NCBI GenBank assembly: GCA_037446635.1
Contig: JBBIIG010000050.1
Coordinates: 1-30,502, forward strand
Source of the DNA: a bacterium
GTDB taxonomy: Bacteria > Zhuqueibacterota > Zhuqueibacteria > Oceanimicrobiales > Oceanimicrobiaceae
DNA length: 30,502 nt
Direction of reading: 5' to 3'
A program made the position numbers and the translations under genes. The notes under the pieces were generated by a model. That model ran no database searches and was not told the DNA's origin. It worked only from the letters and a program-made list of their open reading frames with translations. Every line of letters starts with the position of its first letter. Within the stretch, counting starts at the first letter, position 1. Positions 7,077-26,868 of the stretch are shown here, piece after piece.

Positions 7077-7415
7077 ATGATGATGAATCTCAAACAATTA
7101 TGGAAAGAAACCGACGACTTTGTGCGCTCTCATGAAACGCAAATCGCCGAAAAGTACCTTCATTTTCTCCGCGAAGTAGCCAAACACTACCTTTCAAAAG
7201 GCCAGCGCGTTTTCTTTCGCGAGAACCGGGTTGTGCATTATGGCGAGGGTGGATTCGGATCGTTAATTGTTGAAACCGAAGATGATGAGCAGGCGATGTT
7301 TGGTGACTATATTCTTGAAATTCGATTTACGCCCAAATTGGAGAAAGAGGATCTCATCGGCGCCATTGAAATTACCGAAGCCAGCCTTTCCGACATCAAA
7401 TATGAAATTAACTGA
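7077..7415 (+). CDS. Hypothetical protein
   Basis: 112-aa ORF co-oriented between ygeY and dgkA; no motif recognised. Confidence 0.7.
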   Translation: MMMNLKQLWKETDDFVRSHETQIAEKYLHFLREVAKHYLSKGQRVFFRENRVVHYGEGGFGSLIVETEDDEQAMFGDYILEIRFTPKLEKEDLIGAIEITEASLSDIKYEIN

Positions 7416-14356: not shown

Positions 14357-17300
14357 CTAAACCACAACAATCCGCTTTTCTACCTCCGGATAAATTTTAT
14401 CAATCTCTTTTTGAATGGCAAGGGTTTTGGCGATAGCTGTCACGATGCCGGAGTAATGCCGGATATCAGCCAAAGCCAGCGCCCGGCCTTTGCGATCCTT
14501 CAGCCATTTATCACACACCTGGTAGCCGCCGATGTGATATTCCCAGATTTGCTTTTCAACTTTTTCAAAGTGCTGATCGCGGTTGATATAAACGCGCCGG
14601 CGCTCGGCGTCGAATTGCGGCTTGTCAACTTTGCCTGATCCTGTGCCCTGTAATTTCAGCGGTGCTCGATCCAACTCTTTAGATTGAAGCAAATGCAGCC
14701 CCACCAATCGCTGGCCGAGTTTTGACATCTTCTGAAATAGTTTGTACTCGGAAGTAAACGGCACGCGCGGAAAATCGATTCGCAAAAATTCAGCGTACTG
14801 ATTCCGATAAATGTTGGAGTAGAGAACGGCGTAGATGTAGCAGAAGATTTCTTCAGGCGTGGGTTGCTTGCGATAGGCTTTTTTTAATGATTCGAGCAGC
14901 GCTGGATTCAAATTGGGTTTTTTGGTGCGATAGGGTTCAGCGGGTTCGAAGACGATCATCATGGTGCTGTTGGCGCCGCGATTCGGCTTGGGTTGCTCGG
15001 CATAAATGTAAAGTGGAAAATTCACATTGCCGCCGCGATAGAATAGATTCAAATCTGTCATACAATCCGAGCAAAACACGATGTTCCAGGGTTTCTCCAA
15101 GCCAACCACCTGGCCAGCCCGGCCAACACATAAAGCCAAATTTGTTTTCAGCATGTGTTGCATCACTTCTCTGCGAGTCCGCTCAACCAACTGATCATGA
15201 TAACAAATCCATTGCGCATCAAAGGGCCGATATAAAATTTTGTGAATGGATTTCCCCCAGTTCTCATCTTCCCGGAGTTTTTCGCGAGCGGTTTTTAGTT
15301 TCCAGTTGGATTTGTCTTTCAAGTTGAATGTCCGCCGAATCATTTCATCGGGAATGGATTCATCGCAAAACATGCGGATGCGGCGTTTGAGCGCTTTGGG
15401 ATCGGGATCGATTACCAAGCTGTCCCGCGAGGTTACGACGCCCACGCTGTTCACCGGAAAAATCTCGTTAATTTTCAGCGATCGTTCATATAACTTCAAA
15501 CCGCGTTCGTCCCGCGGAATGAAAAGATAAAACTCCGATTTCGGTTTCAGCTTCTGCCACTCGGTGTTTTTGATCTCGTGTTTTTCAAGCCACTCATATT
15601 TCTGTTCTCGCAGACCCCACAGATCGGCGTGAAAGACTTGACATTTCTTTTTGGGTTTCTTTTTTGGCTTTTCTTCCTTTGGAACAAAAATGTTTAACTG
15701 CGGCGAGGGACGAAACATCGGATGCGGCTTTTCTTTTTCTTTCATTTTTACGAACAGAGCAATTGCCACGCCCTGCTGAATATCAAACACATTCTCATCC
15801 TTCGAGCCATCGGGACATTTTTCTTTTTTCAAACTGTTGCCGTGCAAATCGAGCACGTAAATTTCGTCGAAGCTGTTCATCAGCGATTGCCGCATGCCGC
15901 GGAAGGTGGGATTGTCGAGATAGCTGTGGTTGGTGATGAAGCCCAGCACACCCTCGCCGGCCTGATCGATCTTCCACTGCGCGAAGCGGATGAACTTCAC
16001 GTAGTCGTCCTGCAGCCACTTGGGATTTTTCTCGCCCAGCGGCTGGCCATCGACGCGGTAGTAGCCCTCGTCTTTGTCGCCGTTCGGGAGCGTGTAGCCT
16101 TTTTTCAGGGAATCGTCCATCCACGGACTGGGATTGGCGGAGTGGCCGGAATAAGGCGGATTGCCGAGGATCACCAAAATCGGCTGTTCCTTTTTCACGC
16201 GGCCCGCCAGATGCGATTCCTCTGAAAGCGACGCCATGCCCGGCAGCTCGGTTTGCGCCAGCTCCTCCATCTCGAGGGTGTTGGTGAGATAGAGCTTGAT
16301 GCGCTCATCGGGCCGAAGTTGGTAGCCCATTTCGTCCAACAAAAACGCCATCTTCAAATGGCCGATGGCATACGGCGCCATCATCAATTCGAAGGCATAG
16401 AAATTTTGCAGAACGTGTTCTCTGATGAACGTCTCTTTTGCGCCCGCGCCACGCTGCGCGACAAATTCATCCGCCGCTAAACTTGCGGCTTGTGCCAGAA
16501 ACGTCAGCGTGCCGGCCGCCGGATCCAAAACCGTCACTGCATCGCTGGCGAGTCCATCCCGGCGATTAAATTTTTCTTTGAGAATGTGATGCAGCGCGCG
16601 CACGATGTACGACACCACCGGCTCCGGGGTGTAGTAGACGCCGCGCTTTTCGCGGGTGGCGGGATCGTATTCCGCGAGAAAGGTTTCATAAAAATGGATG
16701 ATGGGATCGCGGCCTTTGCCCTCGCGATAGAAATCGTGCAGCAGCTGATTGACATCGGTGACTGCCAGCACTTCGGTGAGGTCGTCGATGATCCACTCCA
16801 TTGGCGGCGGCACGTCCTCCAGCGAGATGAACCGAAACAGGTCGCGCAAAATGCCAATGGTGCGCGGGATATGATCGTAAGCCAATTTGCGATTGAAGCC
16901 GTTTTTGGCGCGGGTGCGGGCGGCGAACAGGCCGTAAGTGAGCGTTTGCGAATACAAATCCGCGAAGTCTTCTTTCGACAGCCCGGCGATGAGATATTGT
17001 TGAAAGGCTTCATAAAATCCGTGAATGAAGCCACGAGCGTTTTCCTTCTCTTTGAGTTCCTCCGCTACCACCTGATCTTTCAAAAAGCGCGTGCGCTTCG
17101 CCAGCTCAACCGCGAGCGTTTGCGCACTGTAAACGCGCGGCAGGGAAAACGCAAAAAAAGTTTCGAGCAATTTGAGAAACGCGGCTTCATTTTCCACCGG
17201 CGGGACGGCGCCGAGTTTTTGAATGACAAACGGCCGGGCGATGGCGACTTTGTCAATCAACTCGCCGTTGCGATAGAGCCGAAACTCAAAGAAATTGGTG

Positions 17301-17605
17301 AGGATCAAATTGGGAAACGTGTGGCGATAGCGCAGCACCTGTTCGGAATCTTCGATGCCATTGAGATCGCCGATGGTCGGCGATTTAGCTTCGATGTATC
17401 CGGTGATGTGTTGCAGACCATCCCACACGCGGAAGTCAGGATTGCCGGCCTCGGTTTTTTTGGGCAGCGTGGTAATCCGCACATTTTTCCCGGTTGAATC
17501 AGCGAACTCCTTCAATACCTCGGCGAGGAGAGGATAGAAACTCTCTTCGCGGGCGTCGCCGCGGCTGGCTAATTCATGAATTTTTGTGAGATAGGATGTC
17601 AACAT
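14357..17605 (-). CDS. Single-chain restriction-modification enzyme: PD-(D/E)xK nuclease, N6-adenine MTase, Type ISP-like specificity domain; no helicase
   Basis: PDF..YIEAK; GVYYTP; LDPAAGT; GNPPY; DDYVKF; YRPFD; IDFPRVP; IGGYQV..KWLKDRK. The longer start at 17689 lies in a REP. Confidence 0.88.
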   Translation of the reverse strand: MLTSYLTKIHELASRGDAREESFYPLLAEVLKEFADSTGKNVRITTLPKKTEAGNPDFRVWDGLQHITGYIEAKSPTIGDLNGIEDSEQVLRYRHTFPNLILTNFFEFRLYRNGELIDKVAIARPFVIQKLGAVPPVENEAAFLKLLETFFAFSLPRVYSAQTLAVELAKRTRFLKDQVVAEELKEKENARGFIHGFYEAFQQYLIAGLSKEDFADLYSQTLTYGLFAARTRAKNGFNRKLAYDHIPRTIGILRDLFRFISLEDVPPPMEWIIDDLTEVLAVTDVNQLLHDFYREGKGRDPIIHFYETFLAEYDPATREKRGVYYTPEPVVSYIVRALHHILKEKFNRRDGLASDAVTVLDPAAGTLTFLAQAASLAADEFVAQRGAGAKETFIREHVLQNFYAFELMMAPYAIGHLKMAFLLDEMGYQLRPDERIKLYLTNTLEMEELAQTELPGMASLSEESHLAGRVKKEQPILVILGNPPYSGHSANPSPWMDDSLKKGYTLPNGDKDEGYYRVDGQPLGEKNPKWLQDDYVKFIRFAQWKIDQAGEGVLGFITNHSYLDNPTFRGMRQSLMNSFDEIYVLDLHGNSLKKEKCPDGSKDENVFDIQQGVAIALFVKMKEKEKPHPMFRPSPQLNIFVPKEEKPKKKPKKKCQVFHADLWGLREQKYEWLEKHEIKNTEWQKLKPKSEFYLFIPRDERGLKLYERSLKINEIFPVNSVGVVTSRDSLVIDPDPKALKRRIRMFCDESIPDEMIRRTFNLKDKSNWKLKTAREKLREDENWGKSIHKILYRPFDAQWICYHDQLVERTRREVMQHMLKTNLALCVGRAGQVVGLEKPWNIVFCSDCMTDLNLFYRGGNVNFPLYIYAEQPKPNRGANSTMMIVFEPAEPYRTKKPNLNPALLESLKKAYRKQPTPEEIFCYIYAVLYSNIYRNQYAEFLRIDFPRVPFTSEYKLFQKMSKLGQRLVGLHLLQSKELDRAPLKLQGTGSGKVDKPQFDAERRRVYINRDQHFEKVEKQIWEYHIGGYQVCDKWLKDRKGRALALADIRHYSGIVTAIAKTLAIQKEIDKIYPEVEKRIVVV

Positions 17606-17647
17606 GGTCGCTGCTGAATTTAGCAGAGTTTTTGAGAAAAGCAATAA

Positions 17648-17725
17648 ACCCTTCCCCCAATTCCGCTCTTTGGAATGTTCCTCCTCCATTTTCGCTTTTT
17701 GAAAATGGGGGAGGCTAGGAGGGGG
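17648..17725. repeat. C-rich/G-rich REP-like hairpin
   Basis: CCTCCTCCATTTTC-N7-GAAAATGGGGGAGG-CTAGGAGGGGG; same style as 25545-25580. Confidence 0.65.
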
Positions 17726-17913: not shown

Positions 17914-19623
17914 ATGAAAACGGCCATTTCGAGTGACGTTCTTTTTTCGATTGCGGTGGTCTTCCTTTTTGCCGTCAACGTGTTTGCGCAAAAAGCCGAT
18001 TTGGTTTTTAAGAATGGCGTGGTTTACACAGTGGACGAGCGATTGCCGAAAGCGCAGGCCGTGGCGGTGGCGGACGGGAAAATTCTGGCGGTGGGCAGCG
18101 ACGCCGAAATTCAGAGATTAGCGGACAATGAAACGCAGGTGATCGATCTGCAGGGCAAAACGATGGTTCCCGGCTTCATCGATAGCCACTATCACTTCAT
18201 AGGCGTGGGGCAGCGCGAATATTATCTCAATCTCGACGGTGTGAAATTGCTGGAGGAATTTTTAGAAAAAGTGAACACTGACGTGGCGAAGAAAGCGAAA
18301 GACGAGTGGATCGTCGGCCGCGGTTGGATGGAAGAAGACTGGCCCACGAAAGAATTCCCGACCCGCTACGTTCTCGACAATGTTGCGCCACAAAATCCGG
18401 CGATATTGCGCCGCGCTGACGGCCACGCCGCGGTAGTGAACTCACTGGCCCTGAAAATCGCCAGTATCGATAAGAGTACCGCTGATCCGCAGGGCGGGAA
18501 AATTCTACGGGATGCCAACGGCGAGGCTACGGGCATGTTAATTGACAAAGCGATGAACCTCGTCACTCAGCACGTTCCGTCCGACAGCACGCCGGCCATG
18601 ATACGCAAATACTCGCAAAAAGCCGAGCAAGTGGCGCTGCGCTATGGCATCACCGAAGTGCATGACATGGGATCGACCTGGCCGATCGCGGATGTCTGGA
18701 AAGAGATGTACAAAAATGATGAATTGAAGATCCGATTGTACACCTACATCCGCGGGCCGGGAGAGGATGCCGACCGCTTGTTGAACGAAGGCCCGCAAAT
18801 CGGATTGTTTGACCATCGCTTCACGGTGCGCGGCATCAAAATTACCGCCGATGGCGCGCTGGGTTCGCGCGGCGCCGCGCTGCTGGAGCCGTACAGCGAC
18901 GCCGAAACTTCCGGATTGTTGATTTACAAAGACGAGCAAATTTATCCCACTATCAAACGCGCATTGGCGAATGGAATCCAAATGGCGGTGCACGCCATCG
19001 GCGACCAAGCCAATCGCACGGTGCTGGATTTGTTCGAGCGCGCGATGAAGGAAGTACCGCCCGAAAAGCAATCCCATACGCCCCCGCGTTTCCGCATCGA
19101 GCATGCGCAAATTGTACATTGGAACGATTTGTCACGCTTCGCGAAGTTGGGTGTGATTCCCAGCATGCAGCCGAGTCACGCCATCGGCGATTTGCATTTT
19201 GCGGTGCGGCGACTTGGGCTTGAACGAATGACGGAAGCGTACGCGTGGCGCACGTTCATCGATTCCGGCTGCATCATCCCCGGCGGCTCAGATGCGCCGG
19301 TGGAAGAGGGCAACCCGCTGATTGAATTTTATGCCGCTGTGGTTCGCAAAGATACCACCGGCTTTTCAGCTGAAGGTTGGCACCCGGAGTTAAAAATGAC
19401 CCGTGAGGAGGCGCTGAAGTCGCTGACCATCTGGGGTGCGCACGCGGCGTTTGAAGAGGAGATGAAAGGCTCGATCGTGCCGGGCAAGTTCGCCGATCTC
19501 GTGGTGCTGGATCGCGATCTGATGACCGAGCCAGAAGAGCGGTTGTTTGACATCAAAGTGCTGATGACGGTGATTGGGGGTGAGGTGGTGTTTCAGCGGG
19601 AGAGTCAAATTACGGGTAAATAA
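17914..19623 (+). CDS. Exported amidohydrolase family 3 (YtcJ-like)
   Basis: Signal peptide; PGFIDSHYH, DGH, DGALGSRGA, HAIGD, RIEHAQ, GSDAPVE, PGKFADLVVL. Confidence 0.92.
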   Translation: MKTAISSDVLFSIAVVFLFAVNVFAQKADLVFKNGVVYTVDERLPKAQAVAVADGKILAVGSDAEIQRLADNETQVIDLQGKTMVPGFIDSHYHFIGVGQREYYLNLDGVKLLEEFLEKVNTDVAKKAKDEWIVGRGWMEEDWPTKEFPTRYVLDNVAPQNPAILRRADGHAAVVNSLALKIASIDKSTADPQGGKILRDANGEATGMLIDKAMNLVTQHVPSDSTPAMIRKYSQKAEQVALRYGITEVHDMGSTWPIADVWKEMYKNDELKIRLYTYIRGPGEDADRLLNEGPQIGLFDHRFTVRGIKITADGALGSRGAALLEPYSDAETSGLLIYKDEQIYPTIKRALANGIQMAVHAIGDQANRTVLDLFERAMKEVPPEKQSHTPPRFRIEHAQIVHWNDLSRFAKLGVIPSMQPSHAIGDLHFAVRRLGLERMTEAYAWRTFIDSGCIIPGGSDAPVEEGNPLIEFYAAVVRKDTTGFSAEGWHPELKMTREEALKSLTIWGAHAAFEEEMKGSIVPGKFADLVVLDRDLMTEPEERLFDIKVLMTVIGGEVVFQRESQITGK

Positions 19624-19663
19624 AAGGGAGGCTGTGTTACTTTGACAATTGGAGGGAGGAAAC

Positions 19664-20248
19664 ATGGAGATTTGGGAAGTCGATAAACTCATTTTGTTTT
19701 TGGTCTTTTTCGTTCCGGGATTTGTATCGTTAAAAGTTTATGATTTGTTGATACCGGGTGAACAAAGAGATTTTTCGAAATCTTTATTTGAAGTTATTGC
19801 GTACAGCGCCTTAAATTATGCTGTGCTATCATGGTTGATTGTTTGGATATATTCTGAAAACTTTTATCAGACACACAGAGTATGGTTTTTTGTATTTGTG
19901 GTTCTTATTATGTTTGCATTTCCTACTGCTTGGCCTGTTTTTTATACTCAATTATGGAAATGGAAGTCCATTTCAAAATTTATTATTCATCCATTTAAGA
20001 AGCCATGGGACTATGTGTTCAGTAAGGGAGAGCCCTATTGGGTTATTATTCATTTGAAGAATGGCAGGAAAATTGGAGGAAAATTTGATTCGAAATCCTT
20101 TGCATCATCTTTTCCGGCAGAGGAACAGATTTACTTGGAAGAAGTCTGGGAGTTGGATGAGAAAGAGAAATTCAGAAAACCTATATTAAGGTCTGCGGGA
20201 ATGATTGTATTTTCCAATGAAATTTTAGCGATTGAGTTATTTAGATAA
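19664..20248 (+). CDS. DUF6338-like membrane protein (3 TM plus C-terminal beta domain)
   Basis: GGAGG RBS; FFVPGF..PWDYVF..WVIIHLKNG..IGG..ASS..QIYLEEVW pattern recalled for DUF6338; AT-rich. Confidence 0.7.
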   Translation: MEIWEVDKLILFLVFFVPGFVSLKVYDLLIPGEQRDFSKSLFEVIAYSALNYAVLSWLIVWIYSENFYQTHRVWFFVFVVLIMFAFPTAWPVFYTQLWKWKSISKFIIHPFKKPWDYVFSKGEPYWVIIHLKNGRKIGGKFDSKSFASSFPAEEQIYLEEVWELDEKEKFRKPILRSAGMIVFSNEILAIELFR

Positions 20249-20263
20249 TAATTGGAGGTCAAA

Positions 20264-20440
20264 ATGTCAGATAACAAAAACAAATCAGAAAAGGAGTTTC
20301 TCAGCATTGAGAGAAAAAAAGTATATGGGGGTTACCAACCTACTAAGGGTCATTTGGATTCTTCAAATCCACCGCAAGGAGGTTCAGGTTTACCTTCAAA
20401 ATCAACTAGCACTAAAAGCAAGACTGACAAGAAGGATTGA
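20264..20440 (+). CDS. 58-aa disordered peptide with GYQP..PPQGGSG motif
   Basis: GGAGG RBS; 15 nt after the previous stop; TGATG overlap with the ispG start. Confidence 0.65.
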   Translation: MSDNKNKSEKEFLSIERKKVYGGYQPTKGHLDSSNPPQGGSGLPSKSTSTKSKTDKKD

Positions 20441-22557
20441 TGCACAACTCAAAGAATTATTATAATCTACTCACCTACCGTCGCCGCAAAACCCGTGTGG
20501 TTTACGTCGGCGAGGTCGGCGTGGGCGGCGATAATCCCATCCGCGTGCAGTCCATGACCATTGCGGACACGATGGACACCGCGGCCACGGTGAAAGAGAT
20601 CGTGCAACTCGTGGAAGCCGGCTGCGAGATCGTGCGGGTCACCGCGCCCTCGATTCATGAGGCCGAGAACCTCAAAAACATCAAAGCGGAGCTAAATCGA
20701 CTCGGCGTGAAAGTGCCGCTGGTGGCGGATATTCACTTCACGCCCAACGCCGCGCTGATTGCCGCCGAGTACGTCGAAAAAGTGCGTATCAATCCCGGCA
20801 ACTACGCCGACAAAAAGAAATTCGAGCAGCGCGAATACACCGACGACGAATACCAGCGCGAGCTCGAGCGCATCGAAGAGCGCTTCAAGCCGCTGGTGTT
20901 GAAATGCAAAGCCCTGGGCCGCGCCATGCGCATCGGCACCAATCATGGTTCGCTTTCCGACCGCATCATGAATCGCTACGGCGACACTCCCGAAGGCATG
21001 GTAGAATCGGCGCTGGAGTTTGTGCGCATCTGCCAGAAGTACGATTATCACGATCTCATCCTCTCCATGAAATCCTCCAATCCGCAGGTGGCGATTCAAG
21101 CGTATCGCCTGCTGGCGGCACGCATGGATGAACTTGGCATGGATTATCCATTTCATCTCGGTGTCACCGAAGCTGGCGATGGCGAGGAGGGCCGCATCAA
21201 ATCGGCGGTGGGCATCGGCTCGCTGCTGGAGGACGGCATCGGCGATACCATTCGAGTCTCGCTAACGGAAGATTCGGTTTACGAAGTGCCAGTGGCGTTT
21301 CAGTTGGTGAAAAAGTTTAATGAGCTGAATCGAGTAGATTCCCGCCTAAAACATGCGGGAATGACAGAGCGCAACGGCGCGTTGTTAAAGTTGCCGGATC
21401 CGTTTACTTACAACCGCCGCGATACCATCGAATGCGATCTGGTTAATCACCGCATTGGCAAAGGACACGTGCCGCGCGTGGAGCTGACTCTAAAAAGTGA
21501 TTTTCACTTGCAAGAAGATCAAGCTATCGAAGAAGTCGCGACGATGTTGGGCAATAGCAGCAACGGCCGGCTTGTGCTCTTGGGTCAGGCATCGAAAAAT
21601 GGCGAGTTGAGATGCGAGACGGTGCATGTCCATCCGCGCACGCCGGATGAATTGCGTCGTCTGTCAGATTTCCAATCGACATGGTTGGAACGGGGTGATT
21701 GGGTACCGCTGGCGGTCGATGTCAGCTCACTGATTCCAATGGTGAAAAATGTGTCCATGTTGGCCGACCGTTTGGTTTTGAATTATGAGAGCGACACGTC
21801 CGCCGACACGGTTGCGCGCGTGGTGCAAGCGGCTGGTTACAATGGCCGGCCCATGGAATGGCGAATTCAACTTCATCCCGCGGGAAGCCGAGGGGTGTGG
21901 CAATTCAACGAAAATTTTCTTTCGAATGCCATCGGGAAAATTTTGGATCACTGCGCCAAAGCCGATTACTGGAACATTCTTTTTTCGTTGTCCAACAAGC
22001 CGGAGTTTACTGCGATCGTACGACCCTATCGTTTTCTCGCCGGCCGCCTCGATGCCCTCGGCGCGAATTTGCCGATTCTGCTGCGCTACTCTTCAAATGC
22101 CTCATGGGATGAAGTTCTCCTCGACGCTTCCGCGCAATTAGGCGCGCTGCTCTGCGACGGCATCGGCGATGCCATTCACATCGAGGCCGATGCGCCGCCA
22201 AAAGATTTGCTGCGACTGAGCTACAACATTTTGCAGGCCACGCGCCAGCGCATTTCGAAGACGGAATTCATCTCGTGTCCCTCCTGCGGGCGGACACTGT
22301 TCAATTTGCAGACCACCACCGAGCGCATCAAATCCAAAACCAGCCATCTCAAAGGGGTGAAGATCGCCATCATGGGCTGCATTGTTAACGGGCCGGGCGA
22401 GATGGCTGACGCTGATTTTGGCTACGTGGGCGCGGGTCCGAAAAAGGTAAACCTGTTCGTGGGCAAAGAATGCGTCGTGCGAAACATCCCTGAAGACGAA
22501 GCCGATGCACGGTTGATCGAATTGATCAAGTCGCACGGAAAATGGGTGGAGCCGTGA
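20440..22557 (+). CDS. ispG: HMB-PP synthase, long three-domain form
   Basis: IRVQSMT, PLVADIHF, RINPGN, RIGTNHGS, HLGVTEAG, GDTIRVSL, SCPSCGR, GCIVNGPGE. Confidence 0.97.
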   Translation: MHNSKNYYNLLTYRRRKTRVVYVGEVGVGGDNPIRVQSMTIADTMDTAATVKEIVQLVEAGCEIVRVTAPSIHEAENLKNIKAELNRLGVKVPLVADIHFTPNAALIAAEYVEKVRINPGNYADKKKFEQREYTDDEYQRELERIEERFKPLVLKCKALGRAMRIGTNHGSLSDRIMNRYGDTPEGMVESALEFVRICQKYDYHDLILSMKSSNPQVAIQAYRLLAARMDELGMDYPFHLGVTEAGDGEEGRIKSAVGIGSLLEDGIGDTIRVSLTEDSVYEVPVAFQLVKKFNELNRVDSRLKHAGMTERNGALLKLPDPFTYNRRDTIECDLVNHRIGKGHVPRVELTLKSDFHLQEDQAIEEVATMLGNSSNGRLVLLGQASKNGELRCETVHVHPRTPDELRRLSDFQSTWLERGDWVPLAVDVSSLIPMVKNVSMLADRLVLNYESDTSADTVARVVQAAGYNGRPMEWRIQLHPAGSRGVWQFNENFLSNAIGKILDHCAKADYWNILFSLSNKPEFTAIVRPYRFLAGRLDALGANLPILLRYSSNASWDEVLLDASAQLGALLCDGIGDAIHIEADAPPKDLLRLSYNILQATRQRISKTEFISCPSCGRTLFNLQTTTERIKSKTSHLKGVKIAIMGCIVNGPGEMADADFGYVGAGPKKVNLFVGKECVVRNIPEDEADARLIELIKSHGKWVEP
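21335..21365. repeat. REP-like hairpin inside ispG
   Basis: TAG-ATTCCCGC-CTAAAACAT-GCGGGAAT-GAC, encoding DSRLKHAGMT. Confidence 0.65.
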
Positions 22558-23319: not shown

Positions 23320-23462
23320 CCGAGTCTTTCATATCCTGCAAGATCATTTTGCTGAGTATTCAAAAGACTCCGCGCCACGAGTTCCGTGAATGGTGCCAAA
23401 TTCCCCTCGTCCGACAACGCCAGCGTTTCCAAATAGGCGCGCCTCTGTTCCATTTTTATAAA
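23320..23462 (-). pseudogene. Fic-family C-terminal remnant
   Basis: IKMEQRRAYLETLALSDEGNLAPFTELVARSL resembles the helices after the Fic motif; no HPFxxGNGR. Confidence 0.55.
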
Positions 23463-23515
23463 ATTATCGTCCGCATTGCAAGCGAAAGTATCTCCATAGA
23501 CAACTGTTACAAAAA

Positions 23516-23890
23516 TCATTTTATCTCCGCAATTAGCGCTGGCTGGACGCGCATTTTTTTTGCGCCAGAAATGGTCACCGCGCCGGCTTTGGCGCGCCGC
23601 GGCTTACGGACGTTGCGGGCCGGACAGTACGACACCGTCACGTTGCGGCCATGACGCATTTTGGAAAACCATGCCGCCAACGCAGCGGCTTCTTTCAAAC
23701 TATTTTTGTCCGGCTCGAGGCCCGCTTCCCCGCAGCGCAGAATCACGTGGCTGCCGGGCGCGCCGCTAATGTGCAGCCAGATGTCGTTCTGGTGCGCGAT
23801 TCTGAAAGTCAACTCGTCGTTGCTGTCATCGTCCTGGCCCACGAGCAGGTCGAGGCCGCTGGAACTGCGGAAGGTTTTTATTTTCGCCAC
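23516..23890 (-). CDS. NFACT RNA-binding domain (DUF814) protein
   Basis: LVGQ..NDELT, DIWLH..PGSHVIL, AAALAAWFSK, VRKP..KAGAV. Confidence 0.9.
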   Translation of the reverse strand: MAKIKTFRSSSGLDLLVGQDDDSNDELTFRIAHQNDIWLHISGAPGSHVILRCGEAGLEPDKNSLKEAAALAAWFSKMRHGRNVTVSYCPARNVRKPRRAKAGAVTISGAKKMRVQPALIAEIK

Positions 23891-25580: not shown

Positions 25581-25692
25581 TGGCCAATTCCCCCTTACGA
25601 AGATTCCAACCCTCGCAAAGGTGTGATCAAAACCCTTGAACCCCGGCGATATTTTGTGTACTTTGCAGCCGTCAATTCCAGAGGAGAGAGAG

Positions 25693-26868
25693 ATGGTCCC
25701 CGAGCTTCGCAAAACTTACAACGCCCAATTCACTCACGAAAAATATCATCATTTTCTAAAAGAGCTGGACGCCGCAGTCGGGATGAAAATCGATTTTCGA
25801 GTGTGCGAAACGCCGGTTTTCCTCTCCAGAGATTTGCTGCTGGAGATGCAAACCGCCGCGGCGGAAATCATTAGACAACTCAATACCCCAACTTATTTTC
25901 GTGAGTCGCTGCGCGCCGTGCCGGAGCGCTATCGCGTGCCGAATGAAGATTCGCACCCGCTGTTTCTCGCCATCGATTTTGCCATCACTCGCAGCGAACA
26001 CGGCAAGTTGACGCCGAAACTCATCGAGCTGCAGGGGTTTCCCTCGCTCTACGGATTTCAAATCGTGCTGTCGCAAACCTTTCAGCGGCTGTTCGATTTG
26101 CAGCGTCTGAATTTTCTGCTCAGCGGCCTGACACGCGATCGCTACATCACGATTTTAAAACGAGCGCTGCTGGGAAATCACGATCCCGAAAACGTCATCC
26201 TCATGGAAATTCAACCGCAGACGCAAAAGACCGCGCCGGATTTTTATTGCACTGAAAAATTCACCGGCGTGAAAGCGGTGTGCATCACGTCGTTGAAAAA
26301 ACGCGGCCGCAAGTTGTACTATCGCAAAGACGGCAAAGAGATTCCGGTGCAGCGCATTTACAATCGCGTAATCGTCGATGAGTTCGTGAAGAAAAACATC
26401 GCCATCGATTTTGATTTCCGCGACGATCTGGACGTGGAGTGGGCAGGGCACCCCAACTGGTATTTCCGCATCAGCAAGTTTTCGATTCCGTTCTTGCAGC
26501 ACCCCAATGTGCCGCGCGCGTTTTTTTTGAATGAAGTGGAATCGTATCCGGCCGATTTGCACAACTTCGTCCTCAAGCCGCTGTTCTCGTTTGCCGGCAG
26601 CGGCGTGAAAGTGGAAATCACCGCCGCCGATCTCGATGCGATTCCGGAGCCCGAGCGCAGCAATTATTTATTGCAGGAAAAGATCGATTACACGCCGGTG
26701 ATCGAGACGCCCAACGAACCCAGCAAAGTCGAAGTGCGGATGATGTTCATCTGGCCGGACGAGCCGCTGGCGGTTACGACTTTGGCTCGCCTCAGCAAAG
26801 GAAAAATGATGGGCGTGGATTACAACAAAAACAAAGATTGGGTGGGAGCGTCGTGCTGCTTGTTTTAA
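25693..26868 (+). CDS. Circularly permuted ATP-grasp-like protein
   Basis: GAGGAG RBS; IDF..KLIELQ, VLKP..FAGSGV, LLQEKI, EVRM; substrate unknown. Confidence 0.6.
   Translation: MVPELRKTYNAQFTHEKYHHFLKELDAAVGMKIDFRVCETPVFLSRDLLLEMQTAAAEIIRQLNTPTYFRESLRAVPERYRVPNEDSHPLFLAIDFAITRSEHGKLTPKLIELQGFPSLYGFQIVLSQTFQRLFDLQRLNFLLSGLTRDRYITILKRALLGNHDPENVILMEIQPQTQKTAPDFYCTEKFTGVKAVCITSLKKRGRKLYYRKDGKEIPVQRIYNRVIVDEFVKKNIAIDFDFRDDLDVEWAGHPNWYFRISKFSIPFLQHPNVPRAFFLNEVESYPADLHNFVLKPLFSFAGSGVKVEITAADLDAIPEPERSNYLLQEKIDYTPVIETPNEPSKVEVRMMFIWPDEPLAVTTLARLSKGKMMGVDYNKNKDWVGASCCLF

Follow-up and report, generated by a model that had tools for sequence, protein, structure and literature searches.

A two-gene cassette of a DUF6338 membrane protein and a proline-rich peptide, and copies of the peptide core on phage proteins

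The two genes and their products

Contig JBBIIG010000050.1 of assembly GCA_037446635.1, whose 30,502 nucleotides are here called the window, carries a small cassette of two genes, the first encoding a membrane protein of the DUF6338 family and the second a short peptide rich in Pro, Gly, Lys and Ser. The first open reading frame (ORF1, 19664..20248, forward strand) begins with an ATG at 19664 and encodes 194 amino acids, and ORF2 (20264..20440, forward strand) begins with an ATG at 20264, encodes 58 amino acids and holds the sequence GGYQP...NPPQGGSG. Each is preceded by a GGAGG ribosome-binding site on the same strand, at 19655..19659 and 20254..20258 respectively. A sequence-only reading of the window had placed both ORFs and their GGAGG sites here, had picked out the peptide core and had described an AT-rich insert between GC-richer genes, all of which is borne out. 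The stretch 19624-20440 has a GC content of 35.6%, whereas each flanking gene has 0.55 and the genome 52.5%, and GC is as low as this in only 7 of 5622 genome windows of equal length. ORF1 is the sole DUF6338 match in its genome, a script search of which finds the peptide motif at no other place, and a promoter and terminator scan of the locus returned nothing above chance level; no RNA holder is listed for the locus.

The membership of ORF1 in DUF6338 (PF19865), already proposed in that reading, is established by a Pfam match at E 6e-41 and 140.7 bits (gathering cut-off 26.5) that extends over residues 4-192 and model positions 3-199 of 205; among 564 candidates, 485 are DUF6338 homologues at E 1e-5 or better. 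Three transmembrane (TM) helices followed by an Sm-like fold had also been anticipated, and an AlphaFold2 (AF2) model built from 28 sequences (mean predicted local distance difference test score, pLDDT, 77; predicted template modelling score, pTM, 0.51) agrees, placing helices at residues 6-29, 41-62 and 72-99 and then a β-barrel at residues 114-193 (20003..20242, forward strand). The best Foldseek rows for the barrel are nearly all Sm, LSm, SmAP or Hfq chains, with probabilities of about 0.7-1.0 and weak E values. VIA aligns residues 112-194 at Z 7.0-7.8 with a root mean square deviation of 2.4-3.2 Å over 65-73 residues; all 50 rows are Sm-fold chains or complexes, and the alignment barely covers the TM part. 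The barrel is predicted from the model to have the Sm/LSm fold, with an N-terminal helix and a bent five-stranded barrel, and ring formation by DUF6338, read from the fold family only, is presumed. The PDB holds no sequence matching the DUF6338 profile and NCBIfam gives no match for ORF1 or ORF2; matches in the Atlas are to DUF6338 and unnamed clusters only for ORF1, and sub-threshold for the peptide.

Conserved residues of the Sm/LSm-fold domain are W115, D116, F119, W126, G139, S145, S148, P151, Q155, Y157, E159, W162, G179 and E191, among which S145, S148, P151, Q155 and Y157 mark a longer loop (SFASSxP) that is at least 93% conserved in DUF6338. The invariant residues of the family show no evident catalytic motif. 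The Arg-Gly of Sm2 is the uridine-binding motif of RNA-binding Sm, LSm and Hfq proteins; it is absent here: position 183 is L, M, S or F in 93 of 107 rows, and its six commonest residues do not include Arg. Because this Arg-Gly is absent while the longer loop is conserved, the domain may contain a putative site for a ligand other than RNA, the loop being the candidate for the place where the peptide core would bind. Lys+Arg over 107 sequences is 0.9 at the N-terminus, 2.2 in loop 1, 0.8 in loop 2 and 4.2 after TM3, a charge bias from which the topology is likely N-out/C-in, and such a topology would place the barrel in the cytoplasm. A complex prediction for two DUF6338 chains with peptide residues 10-50 (own alignments) scored 0.25 against a mark of 0.32, with controls not folded, and is evidence neither way. 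On one viral contig (L006:3866-4311) the Sm half of DUF6338 occurs alone, frameshifted, behind an unrelated N-terminus and with no peptide, and may represent either decay or a decoy.

The suggestion, offered with the first description of the locus, that such peptides often follow DUF6338 genes proved accurate. We compiled 95 loci, comprising the window, 12 viral loci, two from a search of the phylum and 80 from a genome scan, with one truncated locus, two duplicates and four loci lacking a profile match left out; these loci are partly non-independent. The strict pattern G[YH][QKS]P is present in an ORF downstream of DUF6338 at 74 of the 95 loci versus 3 of 672 other gene ends, and the looser [GS][YHW]x[PA] at 89/95 versus 54/672. 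When 124 loci were sorted, 104 had an intact DUF6338 gene with a peptide, 10 an intact gene with no pattern match, eight a broken DUF6338 gene with an intact peptide and one a broken gene without, while one lay at a contig edge. Nine of the 10 pattern misses have a peptide by eye, so that L190, with none, is the sole exception in 114 intact genes. No third gene belongs to the cassette by this measure, as no neighbour family recurs in more than five loci (785 ORFs), and no exporter, protease or modifying enzyme recurs beside it (785 ORFs; Pfam for 139 immediate neighbours). The peptides have no N-terminal hydrophobic signal by eye.

Every synonymous codon occurs in 101 GYQP copies, and third positions are free in both GYQP and PPxGGSG. 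Judged from this codon use, the core is conserved as protein and not as RNA, and an RNA antitoxin of the type III, ToxIN-like kind was rejected on the same grounds. The peptides carry one to four GYxP repeats, prophage cassettes often have two or three peptide genes, and their tails are of two types, one with PPxGGSG and the other with a PP(P)KKP-like terminus. Across host phyla, the type of peptide goes with the clade of DUF6338, with 10 changes on the tree versus a mean of 32 when shuffled (83 sequences, midpoint root). Downstream of three out of five distant DUF6338 copies lies a Pro-rich peptide of another kind; a fourth copy has a candidate peptide on its upstream side, and the fifth lacks one. 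Loci L007-L012 lie in P2/Mu-like tail-gene regions, where DUF6338 is inserted against the flanking genes and arrays reach three to four peptide ORFs. In Pseudomonas stutzeri, according to the accessible text of one proteomic study, three Pro-rich peptides encoded behind a DUF6338 gene gave 44-114 peptide-spectrum matches in uninfected cells, with 98-100% coverage as plain sequences; the DUF6338 protein itself went undetected, but membranes were not analysed (PMC10433244).

The peptide core on phage proteins without DUF6338

The part of the peptide that recurs elsewhere is the core GYQP-x9-PPxGGSG-(V/L)P, residues 23-44 (20330..20395, forward strand), which is also found on phage proteins in the absence of DUF6338. 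A reciprocal search was made by running a DNA pattern for GYQP-x9-PPxGGSG on metagenomes and IMG/VR. The metagenomes gave at least 119 matches, and among those listed 46 have DUF6338 upstream, 63 do not and 10 are too short to judge; flanks are 300 bases or less at 39 of the listed loci and at least 450 bases at 36 loci lacking DUF6338. In IMG/VR all 18 matches are without DUF6338, whether the nearest 4 kb or the entire record is considered. For the PPPKKP type, DUF6338 is missing within 2 kb at 7/27 and 9/16 viral matches. GGSG-type whole cassettes are represented in the viral sets only by L013 and the degenerate L189, yet GGSG cores occur in phages.

These copies resemble the cognate cores beyond the search pattern itself. 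A profile of the ten positions left free in the pattern, drawn from 23 genome-borne cognate cores, is matched by 32 of the 45 distinct cores with scores that exceed the 95th percentile for shuffled sequences. Three metagenome matches (L200, L212 and L270) are chance by eye; they were omitted from the scan against PHROG families and kept in the repeat, profile-fit and flank-cluster counts. The 72 loci without DUF6338 fall into 43 flank clusters, 32 of them with the canonical core, which is thus present on phage proteins in about 32 independent contexts. Neighbours match PHROG families at 24 of 34 metagenome loci without DUF6338, nine of these being head or packaging families; some other matches, such as methyltransferases, are not phage-specific. 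Genes for lysis, terminase, portal or head proteins contain or adjoin the core at 13 of 23 viral loci, where 71 of 128 ORFs were scanned.

The copies without DUF6338 consist of a single in-frame core on a small phage protein, some with a ribosome-binding site of their own, and a second repeat is present in 25 of 46 cognate peptides versus 1 of 63 such copies, among the matches listed. In small terminases the core lies in the variable linker of 5 of 121 proteins, and in a second phage family, whose members were found by the non-motif part, it is present in 5 of 16, where some of the short ones may be start-call differences. The core is therefore an optional addition to phage proteins. The cultured Providencia phage PSTCR8lys encodes a 47-amino-acid version with the motif before its terminase genes (QPB12501.1), and Escherichia phage APC_JM3.2 has a related ORF of 23 amino acids without it. 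Such tiny ORFs form a family that precedes the small terminase of enterobacterial temperate phages, with or without a motif tail and unannotated in several genomes (for example L357:1997-2137, reverse strand; L399:2501-2644; L401:1501-1572). A separate scan of viral contigs for tandem GYQPxxxGYQP gave 25 matches, of which 12 are linked to DUF6338; the other 13, mostly Gln/Pro-rich repeats in long proteins, were dismissed as chance.

Spread, insertion site and defence neighbours

DUF6338 exceeds the Pfam cut-off in 5 of 167 genomes of the phylum. The cassette was seen in 44 IMG/VR loci and 17 plasmids, often forms an AT-rich insert in prophages, and pairs the same two genes across bacteria and some archaea; it is mobile. 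The tractable archaeon Haloferax volcanii has a DUF6338 match above cut-off, and at locus L084 the cassette sits inside a housekeeping operon, between the flavoprotein and iron-sulphur genes of succinate dehydrogenase/fumarate reductase.

The genomic neighbourhoods of the cassette were compared with PADLOC families (E 1e-15), taking the nearest ORF on each side at 75 of the 80 genome loci (five were dropped by the ORF caller) and, as a control, ORFs at a distance of 30-55 kb on 34 contigs of the same loci. Enrichment near defence genes, a check suggested at the outset, was found: 26 of 139 immediate neighbours match versus 6 of 134 distant-site ORFs (p 2.6e-4), the figure within the same genomes being 11 of 61 immediate neighbours (p 0.004), and the counts become 22 versus 1 when housekeeping cross-hits are removed by eye. 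Defence neighbours include restriction-modification genes, PglX, ThsB, a retron reverse transcriptase, AbiD, PifA and several PDC candidates. At L046:3873-6749 the cassette stands directly behind two ThsB-like TIR genes, one of them confirmed by PADLOC, and a 358-amino-acid ORF, as if in one operon.

In the window the cassette is flanked by two host genes that lie outside it, an amidohydrolase gene upstream (17914..19623, forward strand; Pfam Amidohydro_3, E 8e-104) and ispG/gcpE downstream (20440..22557, forward strand; Pfam GcpE, E 7e-134), and the TGA of the peptide gene shares one base with the ATG of ispG. Among 15 relatives with the same ispG type, six have an empty site, with the amidohydrolase gene upstream of ispG and no DUF6338, and in two of these (G052 and G067) the two genes abut directly. 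The gap holds other small cargo in two relatives, an intact cassette in one, and a remnant with other cargo in one, while five have no amidohydrolase gene within 1.5 kb of ispG. The cassette is accessory, and the junction accepts varied cargo.

In two relatives the gap is occupied by a small gene pair (L148:2372-3060 and L158:386-1065) encoding a 140-amino-acid HNH-like protein with a weak IscB match and a 90-amino-acid partner, and L151 has there a different small ORF, HicB-like by eye and with no NCBIfam match. Elsewhere in the window, a type ISP/IIG restriction-modification fusion of 1110 amino acids (14357-17689, reverse strand) lies about 2 kb upstream of the cassette, and three forward-strand ORFs have no Pfam or PADLOC match (25636-26868, 410 amino acids; 7077-7415, 112 amino acids; 23349-23654, 101 amino acids).

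Proposed function of the cassette and relation to known systems

The cassette has the layout of a type II toxin-antitoxin system, a two-gene operon with a small cognate protein partner. As a member of DUF6338 it most likely works like a type II toxin-antitoxin module acting through abortive infection, and it matches no described system. For the fuller proposal, in which widespread phage antitoxin mimics oppose this module, we see about an even chance, and we infer every biochemical step of it. The Sm domains of DUF6338 would oligomerise and the oligomer would damage the membrane, while the GYQP peptide, made in excess and often present as two to four GYxP repeats or two to three gene copies, would bind several subunits and keep the oligomer off. 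Infection would deplete the peptide through host shut-off or proteolysis and so lead to abortive infection, and phages would supply one minimal copy of the core, mostly from late operons, that keeps DUF6338 off until lysis. A toxin held by a peptide antitoxin is the simplest account because the cassette is self-contained, its partner appears to be abundant and cytoplasmic, its neighbours include defence genes and phages seem to have captured the minimal core repeatedly. The earlier suggestion of a toxin-antitoxin, anti-phage or signalling pair has gained in its first two branches from the phage-borne core copies; the branch on signalling has lost ground, since inspection by eye shows no hydrophobic signal at the N-termini of the peptides and the cassette is not accompanied by an exporter or protease gene.

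Several observations weigh against this proposal. The Foldseek matches to Sm proteins have E values of 0.02-0.4, none under 0.001, and VIA scores with Z under 8 may mirror a common arrangement only. Gene breakage shows up more readily in the longer DUF6338 ORF than in the peptide, the congruence of peptide type with the DUF6338 tree shows no more than shared descent, and the P. stutzeri peptides, as presented in the accessible text, are without GYQP (PMC10433244). Completeness reaches 90% in no more than 2 of the 18 viral records, the terminase grafts fit the cognate profile poorly, nine further terminase homologues have a partial PPxGG, and convergence within Pro/Gly-rich linkers may account for some core copies. 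Neither the pattern nor its reversed control is matched in 401 genomes of one DUF6338-bearing phylum, from which it follows that the cassette and the core copies are both rare per genome. That motif phages meet a matching DUF6338 is presumed here. With respect to defence, 113 of the 139 immediate neighbours have no PADLOC match, many cassettes interrupt housekeeping operons, PADLOC 2.0 (2023 library) returns 0 families for either cassette protein at E 0.1, and any mobile AT-rich cassette could show such enrichment, the control being ordinary chromosomal sites and not other accessory genes.

Other explanations account for part of the same evidence. The spread of the motif through phage late regions without DUF6338 would suit a core that phages and the cassette both use as a linear motif directed at some other protein of the host, such as a protease, chaperone or translation factor, with DUF6338 not as the target but as a guard or buffer of that interaction; we think this unlikely, since peptide type tracks the DUF6338 clade and not the host phylum, the cassette is present in archaea and very different bacteria, and distant DUF6338 subfamilies have different Pro-rich peptides. 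A little less likely again is a peptide-gated receptor or channel that serves signalling or conflict between phages, as in superinfection exclusion, communication or the timing of lysis, with the peptide as an activating or modulating ligand and not an antidote. The frequency of the cassette on prophages as an AT-rich insert, the phage core copies near lysis genes and the suitability of multivalent repeats for a ring receptor speak for it, whereas an activator made constitutively beside its effector, as the P. stutzeri proteomics suggests, would fire in uninfected cells, no exporter or processing protease co-occurs with the cassette, and secretion is unlikely for copies inside terminase or methyltransferase proteins.

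We hold it improbable that the cassette is a selfish element, an addiction module that plays no true part in defence, and that the phage copies are relics of decayed prophage cassettes fused by chance to their neighbours. Insertion into housekeeping operons, one case being the site ahead of ispG at which other small cargo also lands, would be expected of such an element, as would the whole cassettes on prophages and the eight loci with a broken DUF6338 gene and an intact peptide; decay does not readily explain why phages carry a single trimmed, in-frame core in each of about 32 contexts, in some cases behind a ribosome-binding site of its own, nor why GGSG cores are found in phages when GGSG-type whole cassettes are almost missing from the viral sets. 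The peptide repeats might finally be the cores of a ribosomally synthesised and post-translationally modified peptide or microcin precursor, with DUF6338 as its processing, export or immunity protein, an idea to which we attach very little probability: no modifying enzyme, protease or transporter recurs beside the cassette, the invariant DUF6338 residues include no evident catalytic motif, and the P. stutzeri peptides were, in the accessible text, sequenced as plain sequences with 98-100% coverage (PMC10433244).

A further claim can be put forward tentatively and with less than even confidence, namely that this is an undescribed form of immunity and counter-defence. A membrane-anchored Sm ring would read peptide repeats in place of RNA, and phages would graft a portable antitoxin tag of about 20 residues on the ends or linkers of unrelated, mostly late proteins, small terminases included, with tag types matched to DUF6338 clades. 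A widespread domain of unknown function would then have a function, the Sm fold would have found a new use in a membrane effector that a disordered peptide gates, and anti-defence would be encoded as a short transplantable motif of a kind missed by gene-level homology searches. Should the defence reading fail, the phage motif stays an unexplained conserved element of late operons.

The literature searched, with most subscription papers and bioRxiv supplements outside its scope, mentions DUF6338 in one paper (PMC10433244) and holds nothing on the fold or function of the family or on the phage core copies; supplements of defence-prediction preprints, which lay outside the search, may list the family. 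That paper describes the SEP1/SEP5/SEP2 operon of P. stutzeri ATCC 14405, which resembles the cassette in having a 194-amino-acid DUF6338 gene followed immediately by genes for Pro-rich small proteins found by mass spectrometry. It differs in that GYQP is missing from its three peptides, whose conservation is described as confined to the species, and its accessible text gives no fold, function or phage link for DUF6338.

With Sm, LSm, SmAP and Hfq proteins DUF6338 shares the fold predicted for the barrel at residues 114-193, N-terminal helix included, but it has three TM helices in front, the longer conserved SFASSxP loop and no Sm2 Arg-Gly. MscS channels combine three TM helices with an Sm-like β domain. 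The order of parts predicted here, three TM helices and then a cytoplasmic Sm-like domain, is similar, whereas DUF6338 is without the C-terminal cage domain and has a peptide partner; MscS is not among the Foldseek or VIA matches listed for the ORF1 model, and hhalign of DUF6338 with the genome's own MscS (one sequence) gives a probability of 0.1%.

The closest parallels in logic are abortive-infection systems that phages evade by antitoxin mimicry. According to the accessible texts, phage phiTE opposes ToxIN with the mimic pseudo-ToxI (PMC3475682) and phage T4 opposes RnlA and LsoA with Dmd (PMC10286901). The logic shared with ToxIN/phiTE and RnlA-LsoA/Dmd, as we infer it here, is that an antitoxin holds an abortive-infection toxin and phages carry mimics of that antitoxin, a repeat-bearing antitoxin being a further likeness. 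Unlike those of ToxIN, the repeats of the cassette are peptide and not RNA, and the presumed toxin is a membrane protein and not an RNase. In place of a dedicated gene such as those for pseudo-ToxI and Dmd, the putative mimic would be a motif of about 20 residues borne by many unrelated phage proteins.

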